NCBI RefSeq assembly: GCF_001194135.2
Contig: NC_068981.1
Location: forward strand, 87,724,049 to 87,788,048
From: Octopus bimaculoides
Taxonomy: Eukaryota
Reading direction: 5' to 3'
Length of the DNA: 64,000 nucleotides
Shown here piece after piece: positions 7,861 through 64,000 of the stretch. Every line of letters starts with the position of its first letter. Position 1 is the first letter of the stretch. The notes under the pieces are model-generated. The model was not told the DNA's origin. It saw nothing but the letters and a program-made list of their open reading frames with translations, and did not search any database. The translations under genes and the position numbers were made by a program.

Positions 7861-7876
7861 GGATATATATATATAT

Positions 7877-8041
7877 ATCATCATCATCATCATCATCGTT
7901 TAACGTCCGCTTTCCATGCTAGCATGGGTTGGACGACTTGACTGAGGACTGGTGAAACCGGATGGCAACACCAGGCTCCAATCTAAATTTGGCAGAGTTT
8001 CTACAGCTGGATGCCCTTCCTAACGCCAACCACTCAGAGAG
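7877..8041 (-). mobile_element. (GAT)n-tailed SINE-like repeat, family B, 5'-truncated
   Basis: Near-identical to 9947-10360, 33456-33697, 55783-55995 and 63712-64000. (ATC)n on the + strand. Flanked by (TA)n on both sides. Confidence 0.8.
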
Positions 8042-9946
8042 TATATATATATATATATATGTATAATCTGCTTTATAAGGCAGTCAGAAATTAAACTGTT
8101 ATTCTAGTGGATAGCTTAATCTGCATATTTATACTTTTAATAATTTTCATTAATCAAATAATATATATTTTATGGCACAACATAGTGTAATCAGAAGAAC
8201 TGAAAGAAATTGAAATATCAGAAAGCTTCAAGAATGTTCCTTCTAATTTTTTAATGTGTGAGAAAAAGAGAATCTTTGTGATAGGTCGTTTGCATGTGAT
8301 TTACTTCCCCAGTCAAGGGCACATAATATTCAACTGCTCTATAAACATAAGTTCAGCATTTACATGTCTGATGATGGGGAAATATTACTTTACTTGGAAA
8401 CGGGTGAGGTTTGGTGACAGGAAAGGCATCTGGCTGTTAAAATTCCATCTCAACAAATGCTATCCAACCCATGCAAGAATGGAAAAGTGGATGTTTGGTG
8501 ATAATCATAATGATGATTGTTCAATGCATTTGATAAATATAAAAGGAAAGTCAGTATTCATGTCCATGAACATATTGAATATTTGAGGTTGATGGATGGT
8601 GACATTCAATTTGACTTCATTTTGCTCTTAATTGATTACTTCAAACTTCACTGATTTCCTTTTTCTTATTCTTACTCATTTCTCAGATGGAATTGACTAC
8701 TTGCTTTCTGATCAGAACTTTACATGAAATATAATCATTTACACATCCATTTTTTCCATAGTCATGTAAGAAATATATTTTCTAAATAAAAGCCAACCCC
8801 AAATATTTGTTTCGTTTCAGCATTTTGCTATGCAGCATCTTAACTTTCTTTGTCTCTGAAAATTGCATAGATGACGCCAACAGGACAACCTGAATCCGTG
8901 AGTTTTGTTTTCTTTGCTAATTATTGTTTTATGTTTTGTGTAATGGAACCAAATTAATTTTAACTGTTTTGTTACCGTATCTCTATTGAAATACACTGCC
9001 TTTGTTTAAATTTAATTTTAAAGATAATGAATTTGGTAAAATAACTACAATATTAATCTGGTGTTTGGAACATAAAACAACTGAAAATTTTTGATGCAAA
9101 TTTTAATTTAGATCACTTTAAAACTGTAAGTTTGTATCATAGTACCTGTGGTGGTCTCAAGTGTGTTGGTATCATAAGGGTGAAGCAAAATTATATAGTT
9201 CTAAGCTAATCATCGTCATCATTATCATTTAACATCTGTTTTCCATGCTAGCATGGGTTGGACGGTTTGACCAGAGCTGGGAAGCTGCACCAGGCTCTAG
9301 TCTGATTCAGAATGTTTTTTACAACTGGATACCCTTTCTAATGCCAACCACTTTACAGTGTGTTCTGGATGCTTTTACATAGCATTGCATGAGTGCTTTC
9401 ATGTGGCACTAGCACAAGTGGTTTTTATGTGGCACCGGCACAAGACTCTTGTGGGTCAATCCTCTTCACCATGTTGGAGTGGCCTTAACACTTCTACTGT
9501 GGAGTACAGGTCTTCTTGAGCACAGCAAGGTGCCAGGTATCCCAGTCCTTCATCATCTCATCTGAAAGGGTCAGTGTCCTGAGGTCATCCTTCTGTACTT
9601 CATCTTTTGATAAGGATATTTTTCTAAAATTGATAAAACTATAGGTCAAAAGATTTTCACAACAAAACAGCAAAGATAATATTAAAAATGTACCACTGTG
9701 TATCATATTGTGTGTGTATGTATGCATATATATCTTTTACTTGTTTCAGTCATTTGATTGTGGCCCTGCTTTGGCACTGCCTTGAAGCATTTTAAACAAA
9801 CAAATCGACCCCAGGACTTATTTTATTTAAACCTGGTACTTATTTTATCAGTCTCTTTTACCAAACCTTTATGTTATGGGGACATAAAAACACACACACA
9901 TAGTTATACATACATACATGCATATATATATATATATATATATATA

Positions 9947-10360
9947 TCATCATCATCATCATCATCATCATCCGCTTTCCATGCTAGCATGGGTTGGCCG
10001 ATTTGACTGAGGACTGGTGAAACCGGATGGCAACACCAGGCTCCAATCTAATTTGGCAGAGTTTCTACAGCTGGATGCCCTTCCTAACGCCAACCACTCA
10101 GAGAGTGTAGTGGGTGCTTTTACGTGTCACCCGCACGAAAACGGCCACACTCGAAATGGTGTCTTTTATGTGCTACCCGCACAAGCCAGTCCAGGGGCAC
10201 TGGCAACGATCTCACTCGAAAATCCTACGGGAGCCAGTCAGGCGGTACTGGCAACGGCCACGCTCAAAATGGTGCATCTCATGTGCCACCCGCACAAGAG
10301 CCAGTCCAGGGGCACTGGCAACGATCTTACTTGGCTTGCCGGGTCTTCTCACGCACAGCA
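9947..10360 (-). mobile_element. (GAT)n-tailed SINE-like repeat, family B, long copy nested in a family-A SINE
   Basis: Conserved core ggaagggcatccagctgtagaaac on the minus strand, with modular 5' hairpin repeats. It interrupts a family-A SINE whose tail is at about 9735-9900 and whose head is at about 10500-10657. Confidence 0.8.
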
Positions 10361-25313: not shown

Positions 25314-26088
25314 TTACATTCTTCTCCAGGTCATAGAGCCTTCTTTGTCATGTACATGTAAAGAATGCGACATATAAGCACATAATAAAGAGCAGGCCGT
25401 AATTCCTGTCTGTTTTTCGTGAGTGGAAAAATCCACTCTAACAGAGGCGAGAATAAAAACCGCTCTTGTTGAGTCGTGTTGACTATGGTTGGAGATGTTG
25501 GTAATACGTAGTTCGGTCTCCATGGCCGTATTTGTTCTTTAGTCGGGTTCACCAGTTATAAGTTGGTAGTCCAGAATTCATGCTGCGTTTTTTCTTTGTC
25601 GGGGTCACCACTTTAGTAGAAAGTGGGTTATTGCAGCTCAGCGGGCTGCGTGTTCGAATCACGTCGGGGGTCACCAGTATAGTAGAAAGTGGGTTATACA
25701 TCTTTAGATGTATACTTGACTTTCCTACTATAAAATTAAAGAATATAAAGGAACGCTGAACTCCAGACTATCAACTTAAACAACACTTTATTCAGGTGGT
25801 AAATATATACATCTTTAGTTCTTGTTGTTACAGCTTCTGTTGTGTATGAGCATAGTTGTTGAGACGTTGTTCTGTAGTTGTAAGCGAGCTGTCGAGTGTA
25901 AGTCCGAAAGATGTAGAGAGACAGCTTAACACGTAAAGAGACTGTCTCCAGGTTGGAGTATTAGAGACACTCTTGACACGTCCGTGCTCATGGTCGGCCG
26001 ACCGTAAAACAGAAAGATTAAAGCGGGAACGCTTGCTTGTTTAATTCCACGCATGCGTGAGACTACGCATGCGCACAGCGTTACTACA
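25314..26088 (-). mobile_element. LTR retrotransposon remnant (probably Gypsy-type): 5' LTR, tRNA-Trp PBS array and truncated internal sequence
   Basis: The minus strand begins TGTAGTAA at 26088 and ends ...TTCTACTATA at 25678, an imperfect terminal inverted repeat around an LTR of about 411 bp. AATAAA at 25792-25787. TGGTGACC-type PBS immediately follows. CpG-rich relative to the flanks. No second LTR is visible. Confidence 0.75.
25644..25676 (+). other. 3' half-fragment of mature tRNA-Trp including CCA (extended PBS; not a tRNA gene)
   Basis: GGCTGCGTGTTCGAATCACGTCGGGGGTCACCA matches the metazoan tRNA-Trp(CCA) 3' end as I recall it (GGCTGCGTGTTCGAATCACGTCGGGGTCA+CCA), with one extra G. The D-arm and anticodon arm are absent. 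Confidence 0.8.
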
Positions 26089-30800: not shown

Positions 30801-32835
30801 TATAAAGTAGGTATGTAACTGATTGAATCAATTTAGTACATTTCTGAGCAGAAATAAAATCAACTCCAAACATATATGGGTGAATCTAAATAGTGATTTC
30901 AAATTTTGGCACAAGGCCAGTATTTTGGCGGAGGGAGTAAGCTGTTTACATTGACCCCCAAGTACTCGACTGGTACTTATTTTATCAACCCTGAAAGGAT
31001 GAAAGGTAAAGTTGAGCTCAGAACATAAAACAGACAAGATGCCACTAAGCATTTTGCTAGGTATGGTAACGATTCTGCCAGCTCACCACCTTAATGAATC
31101 TAAATATTGCAGGACATTTAATTCTTTGCCTGCATAATTAAATTTCATGGTCAATCCTATGATAATGTTAACTATCCACCAAAAAACAAAAAGGAAAGTT
31201 TCTGTTTCTGCATTTCCTGTAGTACAGTTTCCATATCCACCAAAAACGTATTTGATCCTTGCTCTATAAGAGACATTTGGTGAAATATGGGAAAAAAATT
31301 AAGAAAATCTGAAAAATTGTCTTTTGTATAACGTGTCCAAAGGAGTGTTGCTGCTTCTTGCAGCATAAGAAGCTATTCAAAGCCATTAGGTAAAACTGTT
31401 TTCTGCAATTAAAAGTAACTTTCCACATACAAAGGGTCAAATAATTTTTGATATTAAAAAGGCTGATAATGTTCTATGATTGTTGGAATTTCTATTACAT
31501 AAAAAAATTATGTGAAAAGTGTTCTATTCTATGCAAATGCATTTTGCAAATGTAAGAGTTAGGAGACATGGAGTCAACTTTGCTTTTCCCTGGTTCAATA
31601 GTATACCTTCTATACCTATTGCCCTTACAAAAATTGATATATTATCTAATGGGATACAAGCATGGCTGTGATTAAGAAATCAACTTCACAATAACAAGGT
31701 TCTGGGTTCAATCCCACTTAAGAGTAGAATTTCTTAAACAGAAAATGTATGGAAGCCCATTATATACCATCATACTTTTATGTCTTACATGCTTGCATGA
31801 ATTGGGTAGGTTGTCTTGGTCCAAGTCAGTTCTTGTTTGAAGTTACTGCTCTCCTGGGAAGGTCTCATTTCCTTTTTTGCAGGGTTCCTACATCTGGGTG
31901 CCCTTCCTGAAGACAACTATTTTACAAAGTGTATTGGGTGGATTTTATTGAGATACCAGCACTAGTAAGTATGTTTTGACTCAACACTGTGTTGTCTCAG
32001 GAACATGATCTATAGAGTGAATAAAAGAGTGGAGTGTAGTGGTTGTGGGGCTTATTGTTACTCAACTTTTTCTTTCTATTGAGTGTATCTGGAGGGTCTG
32101 CATTAGCTTCCTGTATTCCTACAGCCTCAATTATTTGTTATAATGTTGGGTCTTTTGGATGTGTGGAAAGAAAATTTGATATTTTTTTTATTGATTCATG
32201 ATGATTCTGTATAGCAAGTTGATAGAGTAGAGATGTTTGCTTCTTTTCAATGTATTCCTGTCACATTAGACACATGGAAGAGCAATGCAAAGACACCATT
32301 ACAAACTATATTAGAGAAAGGTCCCACATTGTAGGTGAAAGGATCACAGAACACTAGCAAATATTTTTTATCCAGCCCACCAGCTCACTGTTTTTCTATA
32401 TCAGTAGAAGTGACATTTGTCTGAGCATGTAGCTGATGGTGAATATTTTTTACCGATGTCATGCAAGTACGCAGAAATCCTGTCAGACACCTTCCATCTG
32501 CTACTGATATGCTTCTGTGTTTTTTAGCACTATACATCTATATGGATTGCTTTCTCCAAACAAATACCACAATATTATGGCTTTCTTACAGTATATCCAT
32601 GTTAAGTAAGATATATTTACACACACACACACACACATATATATATTTATATTTTTATATATTATATATGTAAAGCATAATATGTTATACATGTATGAAT
32701 ATTGTTATGATTGTCGTTTTAAAAAATTAAAAAATAGACATAATATAATGTCTAAAAGTTGCTTGATCCCATCCTACCACCTGTCTTTGTCTGTTGTTTT
32801 TTCGTAAATTCTCCCATATATATATATATATATAT

Positions 32836-33048
32836 CTGTAAAAATATGTGACACTTATTCAGTAGCCATGATAAAACTCCGAGTTTCGGATACCAGGGTG
32901 GGAGCCCACGCCAACATTTCTTCAGTTATCCGGCCAATTGAAAATTCCTGTCGGATAACTGAAAAGATGTTGGCGTGGGCTCCCACCCTGGCATCCAAAA
33001 CTCGGAGTTTTATCATGGCTACTGAATAAGTGTCACATATTTTTACAG
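32836..33048. mobile_element. Foldback element (97-bp arms, 19-bp spacer) in (TA)n, with a hammerhead-like fold
   Basis: Arms 32836-32932 and 32952-33048 are reverse complements with 4 mismatches. Confidence 0.8.
32870..32931 (-). ncRNA. Type-I hammerhead ribozyme candidate
   Basis: GATAA-CUGAAGA-[stem II, partly wobble-paired, capped by GUGGG-CU-CCCAC]-GAAAC-UCGGA-GUU-UUAUC, with a 5-bp stem I. Confidence 0.55.
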
Positions 33049-33065
33049 ATATATATATATATATA

Positions 33066-33455: not shown

Positions 33456-33697
33456 GGTGGCACATAAAAGACACCATTTCGAGCGTGGCCGTTTTCGTGC
33501 GGGTGACACGTAAAAGCACCCACTATACTCTCTGAGTGGTTGGCGTTAGGAAGGGCATCCAGCTGTAGAAACTCTGCCAAATCAGACTGGAGCCTGGTGT
33601 TGCCATCCGGTTTCACCAGTCCTCAGTCAAATCGTCCAACCCATGCTAGCATGGAAAGCAGACGTTAAACGATGATGATGATGATGATGATGATGAT
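33456..33697 (+). mobile_element. (GAT)n-tailed SINE-like repeat, family B
   Basis: Reverse complement of the 9947-10360 and 63712-64000 copies. Ends ttaaacgatgatgatg... and then (TA)n. Confidence 0.8.
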
Positions 33698-34077
33698 ATA
33701 TATATAGTTTGTAAAAAACATAAATCTGAAAGAAGACACACACTCTAAGATGTAGAGCAGTATATATTAAAAAATGGAGAAGGCCAGTTTATGGGATTAC
33801 CTTAGGTATCCCAACCTTTGAGTAGTGATGCATTTCCCCCTCTATATTTTTTAGAGGTCATTGGCCAACAGGACCTTTGAGTAGTGAAGCATTTCCCCCT
33901 CCACATTTTTAAGAGGTCATGGGCCAACAGGTTTTTGGGATTCGACAATATGCCATGAAGTTAAACCCTTTATGGATGAGAAACCTAAGGTAATTCCATA
34001 AACCAGCCTTCCCCATTTTTAATATATATATATATATATAAGAATTTAAGGATTGGAGAAAACGCATGTTATAATTG

Positions 34078-34176
34078 CATACTTTATTCCTACATATGTT
34101 TCAAAGGATTACAACCTGTGTGATCCATAGGGATCTTTGATATTAAAATTGTAACCTTCTCATCAGGGAAAGCATG
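34078..34176 (-). ncRNA. Type-I hammerhead ribozyme, intact core (mirror copy)
   Basis: Exact reverse-complement copy of 34250-34348 within the left arm. Confidence 0.75.
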
Positions 34177-34249
34177 GGAATCAAGTCATAACCTTATCCA
34201 TCTATTGTTTTCATAATCGGTCATAATGTCTTACGTTTAAGATGATTCC

Positions 34250-34348
34250 CATGCTTTCCCTGATGAGAAGGTTACAATTTTAATATCAAAGATCCCTATG
34301 GATCACACAGGTTGTAATCCTTTGAAACATATGTAGGAATAAAGTATG
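34250..34348 (+). ncRNA. Type-I hammerhead ribozyme, intact core
   Basis: Stem I is UUCC/GGAA plus CAUGCU/AGUAUG around a UAA bulge. CUGAUGA at 34260-34266. Stem II has 11 bp with a 1-nt bulge. GAAAC at 34324-34328. Short palindromic stem III ACAUAUGU. Predicted cleavage after GUA (34335). Confidence 0.75.
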
Positions 34349-34564
34349 CAATTATAACATGCGTTTTCTCCAATCCTTAAATTCTTAAATATACTCAAAT
34401 ACCCAAAATTTCAAGGAGTTCCTGCCTTAAAAACAGGAGCTAACCACAGTTATTTTGTGTTCTTTGCTACATTGGTTTCTATTAACCCATTTATTCTATC
34501 AGAAGAATTTTTATTCATTAAGATAGAATAAATACACATAATTATATATATATATATATATAAT

Positions 34565-35268: not shown

Positions 35269-35895
35269 TATAATTTAAACATAGTGCAGAGTAATTATAG
35301 TAAATAGATAAAGGCTCTTACAGCTGTTTCTAGAATAGCTAAGCATCAGAGAGAGAGAGAGAGAGAATATCCTTCGTTAAGGATATTAGTAGTTACCAGT
35401 TCAAAGAAAAACTATGGCATATCTGAGGAGAGATAATAGTGGTTGGTAGTTCCATGACTGAAAAATTAATGAAATCCTTAGTAAAAGATGATATCAGTTA
35501 GCAGTTCCATTGTTGAAGTATCAAAGAAAATCTAAAGTAACAGGTAATAGAAGTTACTAGTTTTGTCTTTGAAGGGAAAATGAGGTAGATTTTCCTTGAT
35601 ACTTCAACAATGGAACTGCTAACAGATATTATCTTTTACTAAAGATTTCATTGATTCTTTGGTCATGGAATTACTAACCACTATTATCTTTCTATTTAGT
35701 TTTTCAATGAACTGGTAACTACTAATAACATTAATTAAGGATATTCTTTACTTATTTCTCTCTCTCCAATGACAGAATAGTTAGCTTTCATGGAAATCCT
35801 TGCTCAATAGCATATGCTCCACATGCTATTCTTGAAACAGATGTAAGAAACTTTACCTATTTACTATAACTATGGTGTACTACGTTTAAATTATA
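35269..35895. mobile_element. Large degenerate foldback element (arms about 35269-35534 and 35586-35895)
   Basis: The arms are imperfect reverse complements with indels. The outer parts carry GAAACAGCTGTAAGA / GAAACAGATGTAAGA hammerhead-like halves. Confidence 0.7.
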
Positions 35896-46351: not shown

Positions 46352-46861
46352 ATTACAAAATTTGGCACTGTCATGGTATTAGCTGTCAGAATTGAAAGTA
46401 GAACTGACAAGGAACGTTACTGCTGGTTTGAGTTGATTCTTTGGCTACTGACAACTAATACCATGACTGGCCGGAGCTAACTATCTGTCTGTCTGTCTAT
46501 CTCACTATCTCTCTCTCTATATATATCTATCTATCTATCACTCGTTCACCTCTGTTTGTGTCCGTAGAATCTATCAAATTAGAAAACGCAAATTTAATAT
46601 AAAAATATATTTTCTGAAATTGCAAATTATTTAAAATATAAAAATATAATTTTCAACAGAGAGAATTTATCAAAATAGAAAACAAATGAAGTTTGAAGTT
46701 TAAAAATAATAGGATCGACCACTCACAACTAGCTAGCGCGGACGCGCGACTGCGCGTTCGGGACCACTCTGCTTCAGTAGTACCCTTATACTCTGTGTGT
46801 TTTTAAACACATGGATATAGGTGTCAAATTTGTTCCAATAACTTTCGAGTGATAGATAGAT

Positions 46862-46894
<33 letters not shown>

Positions 46895-47030
46895 TAGCTC
46901 GCTTCAGCCAGTCATGGTATTAGCTGTCAGTAGCCAAAGAATCAACTCAAACCAGCAGTAACGTTCCTTGTCAGATTTTTCTACTTTCACTTCTGACAGC
47001 TAATACCATGACAGTGCCCAAAATTTTAAT
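46352..47030. mobile_element. Non-autonomous element with about 190-bp compound terminal inverted repeats
   Basis: 46352-46544 and 46846-47030 are high-identity reverse complements, including mirrored (CTGT)n/(CT)n/(CTAT)n tracts. Confidence 0.75.
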
Positions 47031-50000: not shown

Positions 50001-51779
50001 ATATTTGATATCTGACATTGAAACTAAATGGTGCAAATATACTCCACGTAATGTTTTGAAATGATAGTATAACAATACTGTGGCTTTTGCCTGTACATGC
50101 AGACAAAGAAACAAATGTAAACCATCTAAACATTAAAGACCATCAAAAGAAAAGTGCTTGCTTGTTTGCAGAAGTTTCAATTCTGGTTTGGCTTCGATTT
50201 GTGATACTTCTGGTATTATATTATTCTCACTTCTCTCCCTCCCACCTTGATAGACTTTGTATGGTGAGGTTTTTTTTGTCCAGTGAAGGAAAGTGAAGAC
50301 ATTTCAGGTGAGGGATATCAACTGCCTCAATTGTGTAAATTCTAAAAACTTAGAATGAATATAGTATCATCATTTTATGTCCACTTTTCTATGCTGGTAT
50401 GGGTTGGCCAGGTCTTCATGATTTGAGTCAAATCTTATTCAGAATCTGTATCTTCCTACCTGGAGGACCTTGTCTAACATATACATTAAATTTTTGGCAT
50501 GGTTTTTATGGCTGGATACCCATCCAATACCAGTCACTTAATGGAGTACACTGGGTACATCTTATAGTATTGGCTCTAAAGAGGTTGTCATACATTTAGC
50601 AAAATTAAAGATCTCTCTACCCTACACTGCCTCTGTTCATTCACCAACCACTTTCCAGGGTGGACTGGGTGCATTTTCTCAGGGCACTAATACTAAAGTT
50701 GCCTTTATCTCTGTACTATACATTGTCCTTTTTTTTTCTCAAAGCAAACATGACTGATAGTATGAATAAGAGGGTAGAAGAAAAGAGCATGTTAGAATGG
50801 TAGGAAGGGTGTAATGGAAGCATTAGTGATAGCTACTTATTGATTGTTGTAAGGAGATTGTATAAGAAACCTGATGCATGATGAGATAGAAATAAAGATG
50901 GGTCACAGTAAGAGAGCTCATGATGGATAGCAGTAATGATGAGTGATGGTGAGAGTGATAGATGTCAAGAAAGGTCATGTGAACCAGAGAGACTGAAGAC
51001 AATGGCAAATAGTGAAGGAATGAAGATAAGGGTACATGTGGACTAATCTCATGCTGGCTCTTTGTTATTCAAGCATCATTGATCAGACTGATCAAATATC
51101 ATAGGTGGCATACTTAATTGGGATTGGGGGTGAGAGGGTAGTTGGTAGAGATTTAATAGGAATAAGNNNNNNNNNNNNNNNNNNNNNNNNNNNNNNNNNN
51201 NNNNNNNNNNNNNNNNNNNNNNNNNNNNNNNNNNNNNNNNNNNNNNNNNNNNNNNNNNNNNNNNNNNNNNNNNNNNNNNNNNNNNNNNNNNNNNNNNNNN
51301 NNNNNNNNNNNNNNNNNNNNNNNNNNNNNNNNNNNNNNNNNNNNNNNNATAGCTACTTATTGATTGTTGTAAGGAGATTGTATAAGAAACCTGATGCATG
51401 ATGAGATAGAAATAAAGATGGGTCACAGTAAGAGAGCTCATGATGGATAGCAGTAATGATGAGTGATGGTGAGAGTGATAGATGTCAAGAAAGGTCATGT
51501 GAACCAGAGAGACTGAAGACAATGGCAAATAGTGAAGGAATGAAGATAAGGGTACATGTGGACTAATCTCATGCTGGCTCTTTGTTATTCAAGCATCATT
51601 GATCAGACTGATCAAATATCATAGGTGGCATACTTAATTGGGATTGGGGGTGAGAGGGTAGTTGGTAGAGATTTAATAGGAATAAGATGGGTGGGAGACC
51701 CAATATAGATAGGTATCCAAACCTCCATCACTATTATTTTAACAATTGTTTTGCCATGCTTGCACCACAGAGCAAGTTT

Positions 51780-52240
51780 TTTCCAGCATTGCATCACCAG
51801 TCATGACAGTTTGTCATCTCCTTCATAAGGTTCAGCTTCTTGAGATCAGCCTCCATTACTTCGTCTCACTCTTCTATAGACTCCAGCCACTTCAATTGCT
51901 CAACATTACTTTATACCGCTAACGTCTTCCATGTGCCAGTTGTCTCTCTTGCACACAGTCTGATTTCTTTTATATCTAGCTTTTCACTTGGCTCATTTGT
52001 GCTTTGCCAATCATGCATATTTATCATTACACATCCAATGGAGTATTTTTCTTTTTAGTCACTGCAAATTTTCTACATTCAAGGTTCACATCTTGTGAAT
52101 TTATATTCATCACAATTTATATTCAAGTGCCACAAAATTTGCTCCTCGCTATCATCATCATGTACACTTTTTCTGAAGAACTATGATAAATAGAATGGTC
52201 CAAAAAGTGAACCCTGGTGCACTGCTAAATTTATTGCTGT
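51780..52240 (-). mobile_element. RTE-clade LINE, 3' fragment, degenerate
   Basis: Nucleotide similarity to 3390-3870 (...tgagatcagcct...ttttt..cac...catccaatggag...). Confidence 0.5.
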
Positions 52241-54119
52241 ATTCCTTAGTAACTCTCATTTTGATGACTGCATGTCTGGCTGTGACAGGAAGGGCATCTA
52301 GCCATAGAATATCTGCCTTAACATATTCTGTTTGACTTATGCAAGCATGGAAAAGTGAATGTTAAATGATGATGATGATTTAAGGTATATTTCAATCAAT
52401 GAATCTAATTTTAAGAGATGAGCAATAAACAGTATTGTCAGCTGGTTCTTTACTATAACTTACAAAATTATTTGGTCATCTGCTCTGTGATGTTGCATAG
52501 CTATAAAGTAAGCTTGTTTGCAGAAGTTTCAATTCTGGTTTGGCTTCGATTTGTGATACTTCTGGTATTATATTATTCTCACTTCTCTCCCTCCCACCTT
52601 GATAGACTTTGTATGGTGAGGTTTTTTTTGTCCAGTGAAGGAAAGTGAAGACATTTCAGGTGAGGGATATCAACTGCCTCAATTGTGTAAATTCTAAAAA
52701 CTTAGAATGAATATAGTATCATCATTTTATGTCCACTTTTCTATGCTGGTATGGGTTGGCCAGGTCTTCATGATTTGAGTCAAATCTTATTCAGAATCTG
52801 TATCTTCCTACCTGGAGGACCTTGTCTAACATATACATTAAATTTTTGGCATGGTTTTTAGCTACTTATTGATTGTTGTNNNNNNNNNNGATGAGATAGA
52901 AATAAAGATGGGTCACAGTAAGAGAGCTCATGATGGATAGCAGTAATGATGAGTGATGGTGAGAGTGATAGATGTCAAGAAAGGTCATGTGAACCAGAGA
53001 GACTGAAGACAATGGCAAATAGTGAAGGAATGAAGATAAGGGTACATGTGGACTAATCTCATGCTGGCTCTTTGTTATTCAAGCATCATTGATCAGACTG
53101 ATCAAATATCATAGGTGGCATACTTAATTGGGATTGGGGGTGAGAGGGTAGTTGGTAGAGATTTAATAGGAATAACAATGATTCAGTTGCTCAGAGATTC
53201 CATCCTACTGAAGTTACCAAAAGTAAATCCTTTGGAATGTGTCAGTACCTCTAGCATGTCGTACAGTTTAAGTTTTTGATATCAACTTGCCTAAAATCTT
53301 CTAGTTCTATGATACAAATTCCCTGCTTTTACCTTCTAGCATTTAAACTGGCCATGTCAGGTCCAAATATTCTACATGTTTTATGTTCAAACTGACAGTG
53401 TCATTCTAAAAATATACTATCACATCATTGAAATCAAGAAGCAATGCGATGGTTAATTCAAACCAATTTGAATAAATAGCCATTATGTTTGACAGAATAA
53501 TCTGAATGCTAAAGGGTTAAAGTGATCTAAATTAAAACCTTCCATCAAAATTTCATGTTAATTTATGTTCCAAACACCAGCTTAATAATGACAAAGTTAT
53601 TTTACAAAATTCTTCAATATTTTCAAAATCAGTTGAAACAAAAGCAGTGTATTTCAAAAGAAATGTGGTACCAAAAAGGGTTAAAATCACTTCATGCTTG
53701 GGGAAACTTAGTGGAGTTTGCTATGTTACAAGCATTTGGAACTGGCTCTAGTCCCTCTTCACCACTAACCGCAAGCTGTTGAATTTGGTTACAGTTGCAT
53801 CATTGATATGAGTCTGGGAGGATAAAAAAAATATTCTAAGTGATTTGTTGATGTTTTTGGAAAATTGCAAAGTTTGTTTACAAGATTAAAAATGCAACAA
53901 ATCTGAAATATCTCTTATGACTATCTATATCACTGCATCTATTTTTAGAAAAATATGTAATTTATGCTTATCTTTCAGTTGTCCTTCACATGCTAAATAT
54001 GTTTCTTGTGTGTACATTATATCTTGAGTAGTACAGTACATTGTCCTAGTTTATTTGCTTTGATTTTATGGGGAGTTACACATCCATATCTCTTCTTTCT
54101 CTTCTTGCCTTTAACCCTC

Positions 54120-61412: not shown

Positions 61413-63711
61413 ATACATGTGCATAATGGGTTTATAATTTCACTTACAAGGTATTGATTGGCCTGTGGTTATATTAGAAGGTATTTGTTCATAGAATCCA
61501 AAACATCATGTAAATATAATTTTTAAGTATTGTCCATATGTTTAGAACTTTATAAAGAGAAGCATGAACTAAAATTAACAGCCAACTTAAAATAATTGAA
61601 ATATGGTATCATCCCATTCTGTTTTTTTGTTTTTTTTCTCAGAACATTTTGCTATTCTCTGCATTCTTTTATCATTCTTCTCTGCGTTTTGTTGCTGTAC
61701 AATAATTGTCACATTATATACACAAATATCACACAACTTGACCTTCATTTGGAAAGAGAATCTCTTTATTGCCAATGGAAATAATACCTCATTGAATTAA
61801 TTCTTACTCTTGCTACTATGCTTTCAGAATACCCACCTACATTGTCAGTTTCTTTTTGGGAGCCTTTTGGGCATTTTAGGAATTTATTCAATGGGTGCTC
61901 TAACTTACACCTTTCTATCTGCTACATACATTGACTTTTGCTGTTAGCATACCTGTGATCCCACTACACCTTTTGTGTATTCATAGTTTAATTGGATATA
62001 CTTTATGGTATTCCTGCTTCCTCTTTTTTTACATATTGAGCAGGTTATTTCACAGATGGTCCTGCTTTCTTCCTGCTAGCTAAAACTTTGTCTTTCTTAG
62101 ATTTACTTTAAAGCCTCTTGAATGTAGGCTTTGCCTGTTTAATTCTTTGACAGAATTCTAGTTTGTTGCATCTCAAAATTTCTTCAATCAGGAAAAAATT
62201 TGAATTTTATAATTTTGTAGATTTAACCTTTTTGATACCAATGTGCCTGGTATTACAGTCCTTGTATGAATGAATTAAGAGTAAGAGTATTTTCTTTATT
62301 TTTTTTTTTGTTCCTTTTTAATTTTTTAACCTTTTAATATTCTCTTATTTATAATTTCACTTTGCTGTTTGATAGTTTTTAGTTTCACTGGAGTATTTTG
62401 TTTTATTAATGTGCACAATATTTGTTTGTTTATCTCATTCTCATAGTTCTTAATTGGAGTTATTTTGTATGTTTCTCTCTTGTGTTTAGTAAGGATTATT
62501 TTTGTGTGTATCTCTTGTGTTTAGTTGGGATTACTTGTGTGTATGTATCTCTCTCATAGTGTTTAATCACTGCATATGTCTCTCTTATAGTGTTTAGAAT
62601 TACTTGTATGTCTTGTTTTTCATTAGGATTACTGTATTTGTGTGTTTGTGTTTAGTTATTAGTCAAGATTACTAGTGTTGTATGTGTATTGTAGATTTTA
62701 GTTGGATTTACATGTGTGTGTGTGTATTATTTGTGCTTTTAGTGTTTTTTCTCATTCTCAGTGTTTAACTGGTGTATACTTGTGTGTGTGTTCCTTCTCT
62801 AGCAATTTAGTCAGATTGTATCCATGCCTTCCTTTAACTTCGCATTTTGTCGGACTTTTATAAATGTTTAATTTTTTTTGAAAACTACTTTTTAAGCATG
62901 TTTCATTGATTTTCATTATTCTCTTTTGCTATTTACCCTCCTAACATTTTATATTACATAAAACTTAAACTGTTTGTCTCTATGGTTTTTGCACCATTGA
63001 TGTTTAATGGTTTGCTCTATTAACATTGCACTTAGTCTCTTTCCTGAGCTTTTCCTCATTTCCTTTCACTTAGATATTTCCAGTGTCTTCTTACCTTTCA
63101 ACAAATTTACTTGTTTTATATACTTCTTTGAAATTATTTTCAATAGGTATGTATTTTCACTTAAAATAATCTGTTTTAAACAGTTATTTTACAGAAACAA
63201 GGCTTCTAATAAACAATTGTCTAGAATTATTGTTAGGAAAATTATGTAACAAGCCATAGAGCATATGAATACTATATAAGAATATGTTTTATGACCAAGG
63301 TTGGAATTCAAAATTGTTTTTAATTCTACAGAGTATCCCTAAGCTACTATTTTTATTACAATAAAGTTATTTGTTGAAGATATTCTAAGGTTCTTTTTTG
63401 TTTTATCCAAGTGGATTGAAGTGTTTGATTTGAAATTTTCAATATCTTTAAAAATATGTAATTTACTAACAAATGTTCATAAATACCAAGTTATTTTTAG
63501 ATTTTCTCTTATTTTGTGTATACTTTCACCTGATCTTCTTGCACAACAATTAGTTTACTTTTCTGATATTACATTTGTACAGCTGCCTTTGTAGTTCTTC
63601 AGCAATGAGTCTTCTACCATATTTTTCCTTCAGTAGCCAGCATTTTCTGAATTTGAATAGATATAATAATATAAACTGAGACATTTCCCTTCAGCTAGTG
63701 AAGTAGAACTT

Positions 63712-64000
63712 CATCATCATCATCGTTTAACGTCCGCTTTCCATGCTAGCATGGGTTGGACGATTTGACTGAGGACTGGTGAAACCGGATGGCAACACCA
63801 GGCTCCAGTCTGATTTGGCAGAGTTTCTACAGCTGGATGCCCTTCCTAACGCCAACCACTCAGAGAGTGTAGTGGGTGCTTTTACGTGTCACCCGCACGA
63901 AAACGGCCACGCTCAAAATGGTGTCTTTTATGTGCCACCCGCACAAGCCAGTCCAGGGGCACTGGCAACGATCTCGCTCGAAAATCCTACAGGAGCCAGT
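63712..64000 (-). mobile_element. (GAT)n-tailed SINE-like repeat, family B, young copy cut by the window edge
   Basis: Nearly identical to about 9955-10240. Confidence 0.8.

Follow-up and report, generated by a model that had tools for sequence, protein, structure and literature searches.

The window analyzed here is a 64,000-nt stretch of DNA from Octopus bimaculoides (GCF_001194135.2, NC_068981.1: 87,724,049-87,788,048), and all unit coordinates below refer to it. On its minus strand an LTR is followed by three primer-binding sites (PBS) for tRNA-Trp. How did three such sites come to stand in a row? A preliminary description had proposed that LTR end and tRNA primer were captured together, again and again, at the LTR-proximal side, possibly by RT reading past m1A58 and by aberrant plus-strand transfer, and that the array would then be a chronological record of priming events.

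The array and the family that carries it

All three units proved real, with minus-strand starts at 25676, 25610 and 25554 and periods of 66 and 56. The reported 18-nt copy of the LTR end was found as well (25614-25631 matches 25680-25697), and 25644-25676 matches 32 nt of tRNA plus CCA with one extra G. The earlier account of the units was right and slightly understated, as the match covers 44 nt, more than 32. It runs on to tRNA position 33 (25632) with 40 of 44 bases, and its last 12 matching nt, taken alone, give P = 0.004 (5000 shuffles). Beyond its first 14 nt, unit 2 is tRNA-like (P = 4e-4). Unit 3 was correctly called more decayed; beyond nt 14 it is not tRNA-like (P = 0.13), yet it is unit-2-like (P = 4e-4). 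A window search with a 13-mer containing four G hit units 2 and 3 exactly, plus one unrelated site with two mismatches, against a chance mean of 0.59 at up to two mismatches. Unit 1 is absent from this search because of a fifth G. The C-run of the PBS varies in all three units across the family, with five C in 52 of 101 units and four in 33. The parts of the window copy are listed in Table 1.

Table 1. Parts of the retrotransposon copy in the window, in the order of transcription
Feature	Position	Strand	Basis or remark
5' LTR, 411 bp, TGTAGT...ACTATA	25678..26088	-	genome-wide family matches
Spacer, 1 nt, LTR end to first PBS	25677..25677	-	
Unit 1, tRNA part: complement of tRNA-Trp 76 to 33 including CCA	25632..25676	-	40/44, one inserted C
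Unit 1, copy of LTR (U5) end plus spacer	25611..25631	-	terminus followed by TSD in 8 solo copies elsewhere
Unit 2, tRNA part: 13-14-nt PBS, A-rich T-loop replacement, matches to tRNA 52-46 and 38-33	25570..25610	-	
Unit 2, tail: probable LTR-end copy, worn	25555..25569	-	terminus followed by TSD in L145, L150
Unit 3: 13-nt PBS with one mismatch; unit 2 paralogue	25508..25554	-	sequence comparison
Remaining internal region	25363..25507	-	window copy ends abruptly at 25363

Neither a PPT nor a 3' LTR for this copy was found in the window, and the copy (25363-26088) is 3'-truncated. Pfam gave no match on five ORFs of the window, and ARAGORN called no tRNA in it. For the last ~55 nt of the LTR a long hairpin is predicted (-19.8 kcal/mol, a fold without shuffle control). 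The likeness of the unit 2 tail to the LTR end is not significant by itself (P = 0.12), and unit 3 is homologous to the rear unit of sister families. Unit 1 departs from the tRNA family-wide at positions 44, 43 and 38, and at 34 in most copies. At 25630-25648, its changes at tRNA positions 38 and 34 complete a 5-bp RNA hairpin, which may reflect quasi-palindrome correction or selection.

Host tRNA-Trp(CCA) genes are present. An anticodon plus T-arm pattern, which misses isodecoders with different fixed flanks, is fitted by 19 loci, and ARAGORN called tRNA-Trp in 17 of them, one of which (L044) is an LTR-linked copy. The host tRNA-Trp does match beyond 18 nt, in unit 1 as far as position 33. 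We considered whether unit 1 was templated by a tRNA gene or by a variant isodecoder and rejected this; among the 19 loci, the variant bases occur only in L045, a copy of the family.

A one-off local duplication is excluded, since the array was found in dozens of copies across a repeat family. A first look at the genome gave 1656 candidates for the LTR and 660 for the array, figures that are not copy numbers, and the best 40 of each were scored; the best 40 of the 1656 LTR candidates are 83-97% identical. Full copies of ~1.8-2.4 kb have two LTRs and matching 4-bp flanks (L093, L095, L096, L097, L098), and the same purine-rich tract lies ahead of 23 3' LTRs. The right ends of the LTRs are TATA or TAAA, not the usual CA, with spacers of 1-3 nt before the PBS. 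As the internal region of ~1.5 kb is too short, there is no room for gag-pol. Judged by these features, the family is probably a non-coding, non-autonomous, tRNA-Trp-primed LTR retrotransposon with a 4-bp TSD. Within the internal region of L093, ~290 bp (433-720) are 83% like the LTR-side sequence of sister families (L202, L300), which suggests a nested LTR capture.

Three RNA runs from one study cover the array. Their unstranded reads are mostly 90-95% alike and therefore come from many copies; 8, 6 and 16 reads in the three runs join past unit 1.

L217/L329, a broken coding element that is Trp-primed and has another LTR, contains a CHCC-type gag motif, whose spacing C-x2-H-x9-C-x3-C we take to be that of this type, along with a protease, an RT matching RVT_1 (PF00078, E = 3.5e-21) and a GPF motif. 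L217/L329, L335, L341, L343 and L344 form a broken, CsRn1-like coding Gypsy family whose usual PBS is 10 nt; this PBS with its leader is found in 7 of the 14 rows listed, one of which belongs to another LTR. In L217, 20 nt of tRNA complement jump directly into the gag end, and in L209 (1504-1700) a 42-nt tRNA copy is joined, by eye, to apparent integrase-coding sequence. According to the passages cited, the CsRn1 lineage of Ty3/Gypsy is marked by the CHCC gag motif, GPY/F, a tRNA-Trp PBS and a 4-bp TSD (PMC3630058). The family studied here has the tRNA-Trp-complementary PBS and the 4-bp TSD; unlike that lineage it is probably non-coding, and both its lineage and its relation to a helper are putative. 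CsRn1-like elements would be candidate helpers that mobilise it.

Order and turnover of the units

The proposed identity gradient was confirmed in 45 three-unit arrays. Mean matches to the tRNA 44-mer are 39.0, 32.8 and 30.3 for units 1, 2 and 3; unit 1 exceeds unit 2 in 45 of 45 arrays and unit 2 exceeds unit 3 in 39. Such a gradient is in favor of strict iterative capture, by which every unit would stem from its own read-through event and the array would be a faithful chronology. Unit 2 also keeps tRNA-like bases at 38-33 that are changed in unit 1, so it is not a decayed copy of the present unit 1, and several distinct front cassettes exist in sister families, two different ones in a row in L149. 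Nevertheless, we regard strict iterative capture as quite improbable. Beyond nt 14, unit 3 matches unit 2 and not the tRNA (P = 4e-4 and 0.13). In 35 of the 45 arrays unit 2 has more matches to unit 3 than to the tRNA, though the difference is slight (23.6 versus 22.2 of 32). The doubled unit 1 bears the non-tRNA bases of the family, and among the four doublets scored the proximal copy is nearer the tRNA in one, the distal copy in two, and one is a tie. The claim that the proximal unit is always closest to the tRNA holds for unit 1 over unit 2 and fails for these doublets.

The bases at tRNA positions 44-43 point the same way. Among 101 family units they are CG in 87, CA in 8, AA in 4, TG in 1 and TT in 1. 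Because the tRNA's own TT is found in only this one unit of 101, unit 1 would have a single origin. One perfect copy (39 nt) is known behind a family LTR, in L080. Fresh captures in family arrays were found neither among the four loci with at least 33 perfect nt nor among the 64 rows behind TATA/TAAA ends; the patterns used require an exact four-C PBS, and the CA-end, TATA/TAAA-end and coding-family patterns lose about one quarter of sites because of their last letter.

Units 2 and 3 appear to be two copies of a single old unit. Read from these comparisons, the history consists of an old cassette that was duplicated and of a later capture, unit 1. The claim of a separate fresh capture for each unit is already contradicted by the extra unit-1 copies, which are duplicates, and by the non-tRNA features that units 2 and 3 share; it survives as a two-event history of the old cassette and unit 1. 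Of the chronological record, a coarse order of addition stands, and the finer order does not, as the array was shuffled and unit 1 was lost or exchanged repeatedly.

Unit number varies among copies, which have one to four primer sites. Two exact patterns for unit 1 gave 66 and 73 matches; in 46 copies, found by an exact pattern, unit 2 lies directly behind the LTR with no unit 1, and at 5 loci unit 1 is doubled. The orders 1-2-3 and 2-3 dominate among 125 distinct LTR plus PBS junctions, labeled automatically with units 2 and 3 confused in a few rows. Among the same junctions, L113 has a unit-3-like site alone and L002/L091 have an extra 24-nt unit. In a tree built from 97 gap-free 5' LTRs, of which 58 have unit 1 and 39 lack it (one assembly duplicate accounts for two rows), the unit-1 label changes 20 times versus 30.7 times in shuffles, and 12 changes are forced by well-supported branches. 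Since the LTRs are mosaic, the changes include recombination and stand for repeated loss or exchange, not for a count of events. As far as LTR sequence records it, the tree shows that unit 1 was repeatedly lost or exchanged.

Sister families carry differing front cassettes (21, 32 or 42 nt of tRNA complement) ahead of a homologous rear unit, and the re-entry points of these cassettes differ. Polarity is thus kept between lineages. In one sister family (L226, L228, L211, L302, L305, L255) a 42-nt cassette is made of 21 nt of tRNA complement, ending before U55, and the LTR end; up to four stand in a row before a unit-3-like rear unit. L211 and L228 terminate at this cassette with a TSD present. 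L202, L205-L208, L212, L215, L216, L220 and others have a B-type cassette with a tRNA match to position 35, TT opposite U55/U54 and re-entry mid-PBS. In the short internal region of the B type, the LTR start is repeated in inverted orientation ~50 nt ahead of the next LTR. In L044/L082 (1490-1651; G000:C22:13301700) a sister-family LTR is followed by 50 nt of perfect tRNA-Trp plus CCA complement, which folds back through the anticodon stem and continues into a 95-nt inverted copy of its own LTR. This primer copy was called a tRNA gene by ARAGORN.

Base opposite A58 in over-long primer copies

If RT read past m1A58, the base opposite A58 may bear a mark. Exact 18-nt Trp sites were collected behind CA ends (61) and behind TATA/TAAA ends (64 rows, some double-counted). 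Classification of 125 distinct Trp sites left 37 rows outside the family-type bins, and the 13 in which true tRNA bases extend to nt 24 or beyond were kept. The rows dropped were 4 mis-binned unit-1 copies, 2 other family-type units, L318 as a duplicate event and 17 that stop by nt 22.

The 13 one-off, over-long tRNA-Trp copies lie behind LTR-like ends, L080 behind a family LTR, and extend for 24-50 nt. The base opposite A58 is mismatched in 6 of 13, always dA for dT. Elsewhere in these copies, 7 of 207 positions are mismatched, of which four lie at CpG sites (for the excess at A58, Fisher P = 1.6e-5). When T positions other than the one opposite A58 are taken alone, the figure is 1 of 32 (P = 1.2e-3). 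This background is lowered by the way the 13 events were delimited, since their end points were picked by match. Against a flat rate of 10%, P is 9e-4, and 1.8e-4 with L337, a seventh copy with the A58 mismatch (7 of 14). When three events of one LTR family are merged, 4 of 11 remain (P = 0.019 at 10% background). As described in the passages cited, RT misincorporates at m1A, with a low C signal in m1A-A contexts and dATP named for one context (PMC4787781), and m1A58 is stated for retroviral primers including tRNA-Trp (PMC13191261). With the modification presumed for octopus tRNA-Trp, the sequences support dA opposite A58 as the signature of m1A misincorporation. The suspected read-through of m1A58 is thus supported by 6 of the 13 one-off copies. 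We restrict the claim to the A58 mark; precise stopping at modified bases was rejected, as the end points are spread over 24-50 nt and are often set by microhomology. Because the coding relative usually has a PBS of 10 nt, the longer tRNA matches found in it are fresh copies of mature tRNA.

Within the family itself, the base opposite A58 is correct in 100 of 101 units. A read-through origin of unit 1 therefore rests on analogy, the CCA and the junction anatomy, and we consider it likely. L204, L337 and L081 have an LTR, 36-38 nt of tRNA complement, 2-3 bases ending LTR-like and a TSD, while L300 has an LTR, 18 nt, a 19-nt LTR end and a TSD. To judge by this anatomy, the four are one-cassette versions of unit 1. 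These copies support the earlier suggestion of aberrant plus-strand transfer for the LTR-proximal cassette; the transfer itself would be the step between read-through and junction. Compared with 1 of 101 family units bearing the A58 mark, 7 of 39 sister B-type units have a non-T base there, which may go back to 2-3 inherited events, as the 39 units are not independent.

Could the long match instead be an adaptation? A selected extended pairing might open or hold the T arm or anticodon arm of tRNA-Trp, or rescue over-long plus strands, in the manner of the lentiviral primer over-extension sequence (POS); the array would then be no by-product. The sequence next to the PBS is indeed complementary to the tRNA beyond A58, as in a POS. 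Predicted duplexes of units 1, 2 and 3 with the tRNA (-75.6, -47.8 and -38.5 kcal/mol) are more stable than those of the short PBS alone (-32.8, -28.1 and -20.2 kcal/mol). Rear units across families keep the matches to tRNA 52-46 and 40-33 with the T-loop part lost (L138, P = 0.002), many of the 61 Trp sites with a CA end, a spacer and 18 nt go on in tRNA register, and the non-T bases of the B-type units fit as well. We nevertheless consider this explanation unlikely. At least 46 copies without unit 1 have transposed, and the coding relative manages on its 10-nt PBS. The A58 mark in only 1 of 101 family units suggests that over-long strands are not routinely rescued there, and the B-type marks are perhaps only two or three inherited events.

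Rear primer sites, proposed mechanism and precedents

Each cassette ends in a copy of the LTR end, and some copies of the element stop there. Ten solo copies with the family LTR end at an internal LTR-end copy with a flanking 4-bp TSD, after the front cassette in L087, L159, L165, L174, L309, L315, L322 and L090 (the last across an assembly gap) and after the unit 2 tail in L145 and L150. Among control arrays that continue, 1 of 138 has the left 4-mer behind a site of this kind. Selection of the TSD cases was by eye; 19 from all families were examined and 18 have a TSD. L156, L203 and L227, which have gaps or lack an LTR start, were left out, and no TSD was found at L219, L250 and L294.

These ends have to be weighed against DNA-level duplication and deletion, by which one ancient tRNA-fragment insertion was multiplied by slippage, rear sites never prime, and the solo-plus-cassette ends arose by deletion between short repeats. 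The ends of L165 and L322 agree with their own LTR end in one terminal base, and the same kind of difference is found in L090; a deletion to the 3' LTR cannot yield such ends. L145 shares 4 terminal bases with its own LTR and six other solos share 5-18; deletion explains the six as well, and the origin of all seven, judged from their ends, is ambiguous. Deletion does occur, as in L026, where a microhomology deletion into the LTR end left the TSD intact with no rear PBS, and L199, also TSD-flanked, stops at an internal attachment-like site that is followed by no PBS. Units 2 and 3 and the doubled unit 1 are duplications, as this explanation requires. Rear priming predicts some extended 3' LTRs, and none was found among 23 PPT-preceded 3' LTRs of full-length copies. 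A low rate could account for this and the result is not decisive, since solos far outnumber full copies. The explanation leaves the dA bias opposite A58 and the many independent tRNA end points behind different LTRs unaccounted for, along with L165, L322 and L090, and we give it very little credence. The ends of the solo copies make it likely that rear sites served as priming starts.

We consider it probable that the array is a cassette leader, in which the front cassette likely arose once, from m1A58 read-through and out-of-register transfer, and cassettes have since likely been gained and lost by rear priming and template switching. The plus strand that copies the tRNA primer would normally be discarded, as in Ty1/Ty3. 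The first PBS has mostly not been reset to the tRNA; 46 copies keep 13-14 nt, the four-C run of the tRNA is present in 33 of 101 family units, and no 18-nt PBS on a unit-2 tail was found among the 64 TATA/TAAA-end rows. That PBS variants persist without reverting fits the dead-end plus-strand scheme of Ty1/Ty3. Occasionally RT would read past A58, placing dA opposite it, the signature described above. The over-long 3' end would then re-anneal by a few bases ~20 nt inside the minus-strand U5; the tRNA complement at 36-33 resembles the LTR junction bases and is exact in the LTR of L060. Running on through the LTR end and the old PBS, the re-annealed strand would create a new cassette beside the LTR and leave the old PBS unchanged, which matches what is seen. 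As each cassette holds a primer site and a restored attachment end, rear priming would become possible, to judge from the TSD-flanked ends. A cassette would be duplicated when a plus strand from a rear-primed template transfers to the front site, and removed in the opposite case; recombination between co-packaged RNAs may likewise duplicate or remove cassettes. Units 2 and 3 would have arisen by duplication of one older, worn cassette.

Precedents exist for the parts of this mechanism in HIV (read-through, POS and the MAL duplication), in the dead-end strands of Ty elements and in a Culex element. According to the passages cited, the HIV-1 plus strand can pass m1A58 and stop at later modified bases, and lentiviral POS is a PBS-adjacent sequence complementary to extra tRNA bases, as in unit 1; POS serves stops at 55-54, whereas the family match reaches 33, is tied to an LTR-end copy and is stacked (PMC13191261). 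POS routinely rescues over-long plus strands; in the family, the A58 mark in 1 of 101 units gives little sign of such rescue. For Ty1/Ty3, the passages cited describe a primer that is not inherited and a (+) strong-stop DNA that is a dead end (PMC5371799). The persistence of PBS variants in the family is as this scheme predicts, whereas the tRNA-bearing plus strand of Ty1/Ty3 stops after 12 nt and is lost, and the octopus strands reach 18-50 nt and are sometimes fixed (PMC5371799). The MAL-type 23-nt insertion of HIV-1 is a partial PBS duplication in 14% of isolates and, like the octopus units, heritable, right behind the PBS and present in part of the population; it is a single insertion, and the passages cited describe no LTR-end copy, long tRNA copy, array or use of a second primer site (PMC3185550). 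Culex cqgypsy_1 of the Osvaldo lineage has a CCA-ended tRNA at the LTR/PBS boundary and a 26-nt direct duplication of the LTR end. It is presented in the part cited as one element with two whole head-to-head tRNAs, likened to Twin SINE, with no array dynamics and no modification signature, unlike the octopus family (PMC3286476).

TRIM, Helenus and TRIMp3 elements resemble the family in being non-autonomous and having a PBS, a PPT-like tract, a 4-bp TSD and tRNA-derived sequence (PMC10886601, as far as cited here). Assignment to TRIM was rejected, as full copies of ~1.8-2.4 kb exceed the limit of <1000 bp given there (PMC10886601). Helenus/TRIMp3 was rejected too, since the tRNA-derived Pol III promoter in the LTR that the cited part describes is absent; the tRNA piece lies outside the LTR and covers only 76-33 (PMC10886601). 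We found no report of stacked or expandable cassettes of PBS and LTR end, nor of an m1A58 mark in genomic copies, in a partial coverage of the literature; Repbase-type consensus notes could mention such leaders.

A wider reading, to which we give somewhat less than an even chance, is that an animal Gypsy clade has a self-renewing leader. Overrun dead-end strands would be rescued repeatedly, every cassette would be both origin and terminus, and the leaders would form a fossil map of RT errors and stops. Such a map would cover base 58 of tRNA-Trp and possibly 55, 37, 34, 32 and 26, which we take to be its other modified bases. Knowledge of m1A58 read-through comes mainly from the biochemistry of HIV and from methyltransferase mutants, and that of discarded plus strands containing tRNA sequence mainly from the Ty elements of yeast. 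In the octopus genome, an animal germline appears to have inherited traces of both, and the misincorporation due to the m1A modification itself appears to be written into DNA. Genomes alone can be used to test whether metazoan Gypsy elements follow the plus-strand scheme of Ty1/Ty3, by what routes primer sites and LTR ends grow longer or are altered, and whether retroelement fossils reveal the modification state of a tRNA. For annotation, some 'solo LTRs' include a PBS, and some tRNA gene calls, as that of ARAGORN in L044, are primer copies.

The window contains other repeats. Near-perfect inverted repeats with arms of 107-151 nt, hairpin or MITE-like, lie at 32819-33065, 34033-34393, 35428-35692 and 46404-46974. 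An abundant SINE-like repeat with a CAT-triplet start, up to 99% alike between copies, is found at 7863-8045, 9949-10238, 33456-33705, 63709-64000 and elsewhere; we presume it to be an octopus SINE. Near-identical direct repeats of at least 300 nt, at spacings of 520, 1490 and 2352, occupy 50160-53138 and are either a recent tandem duplication or an assembly artefact.
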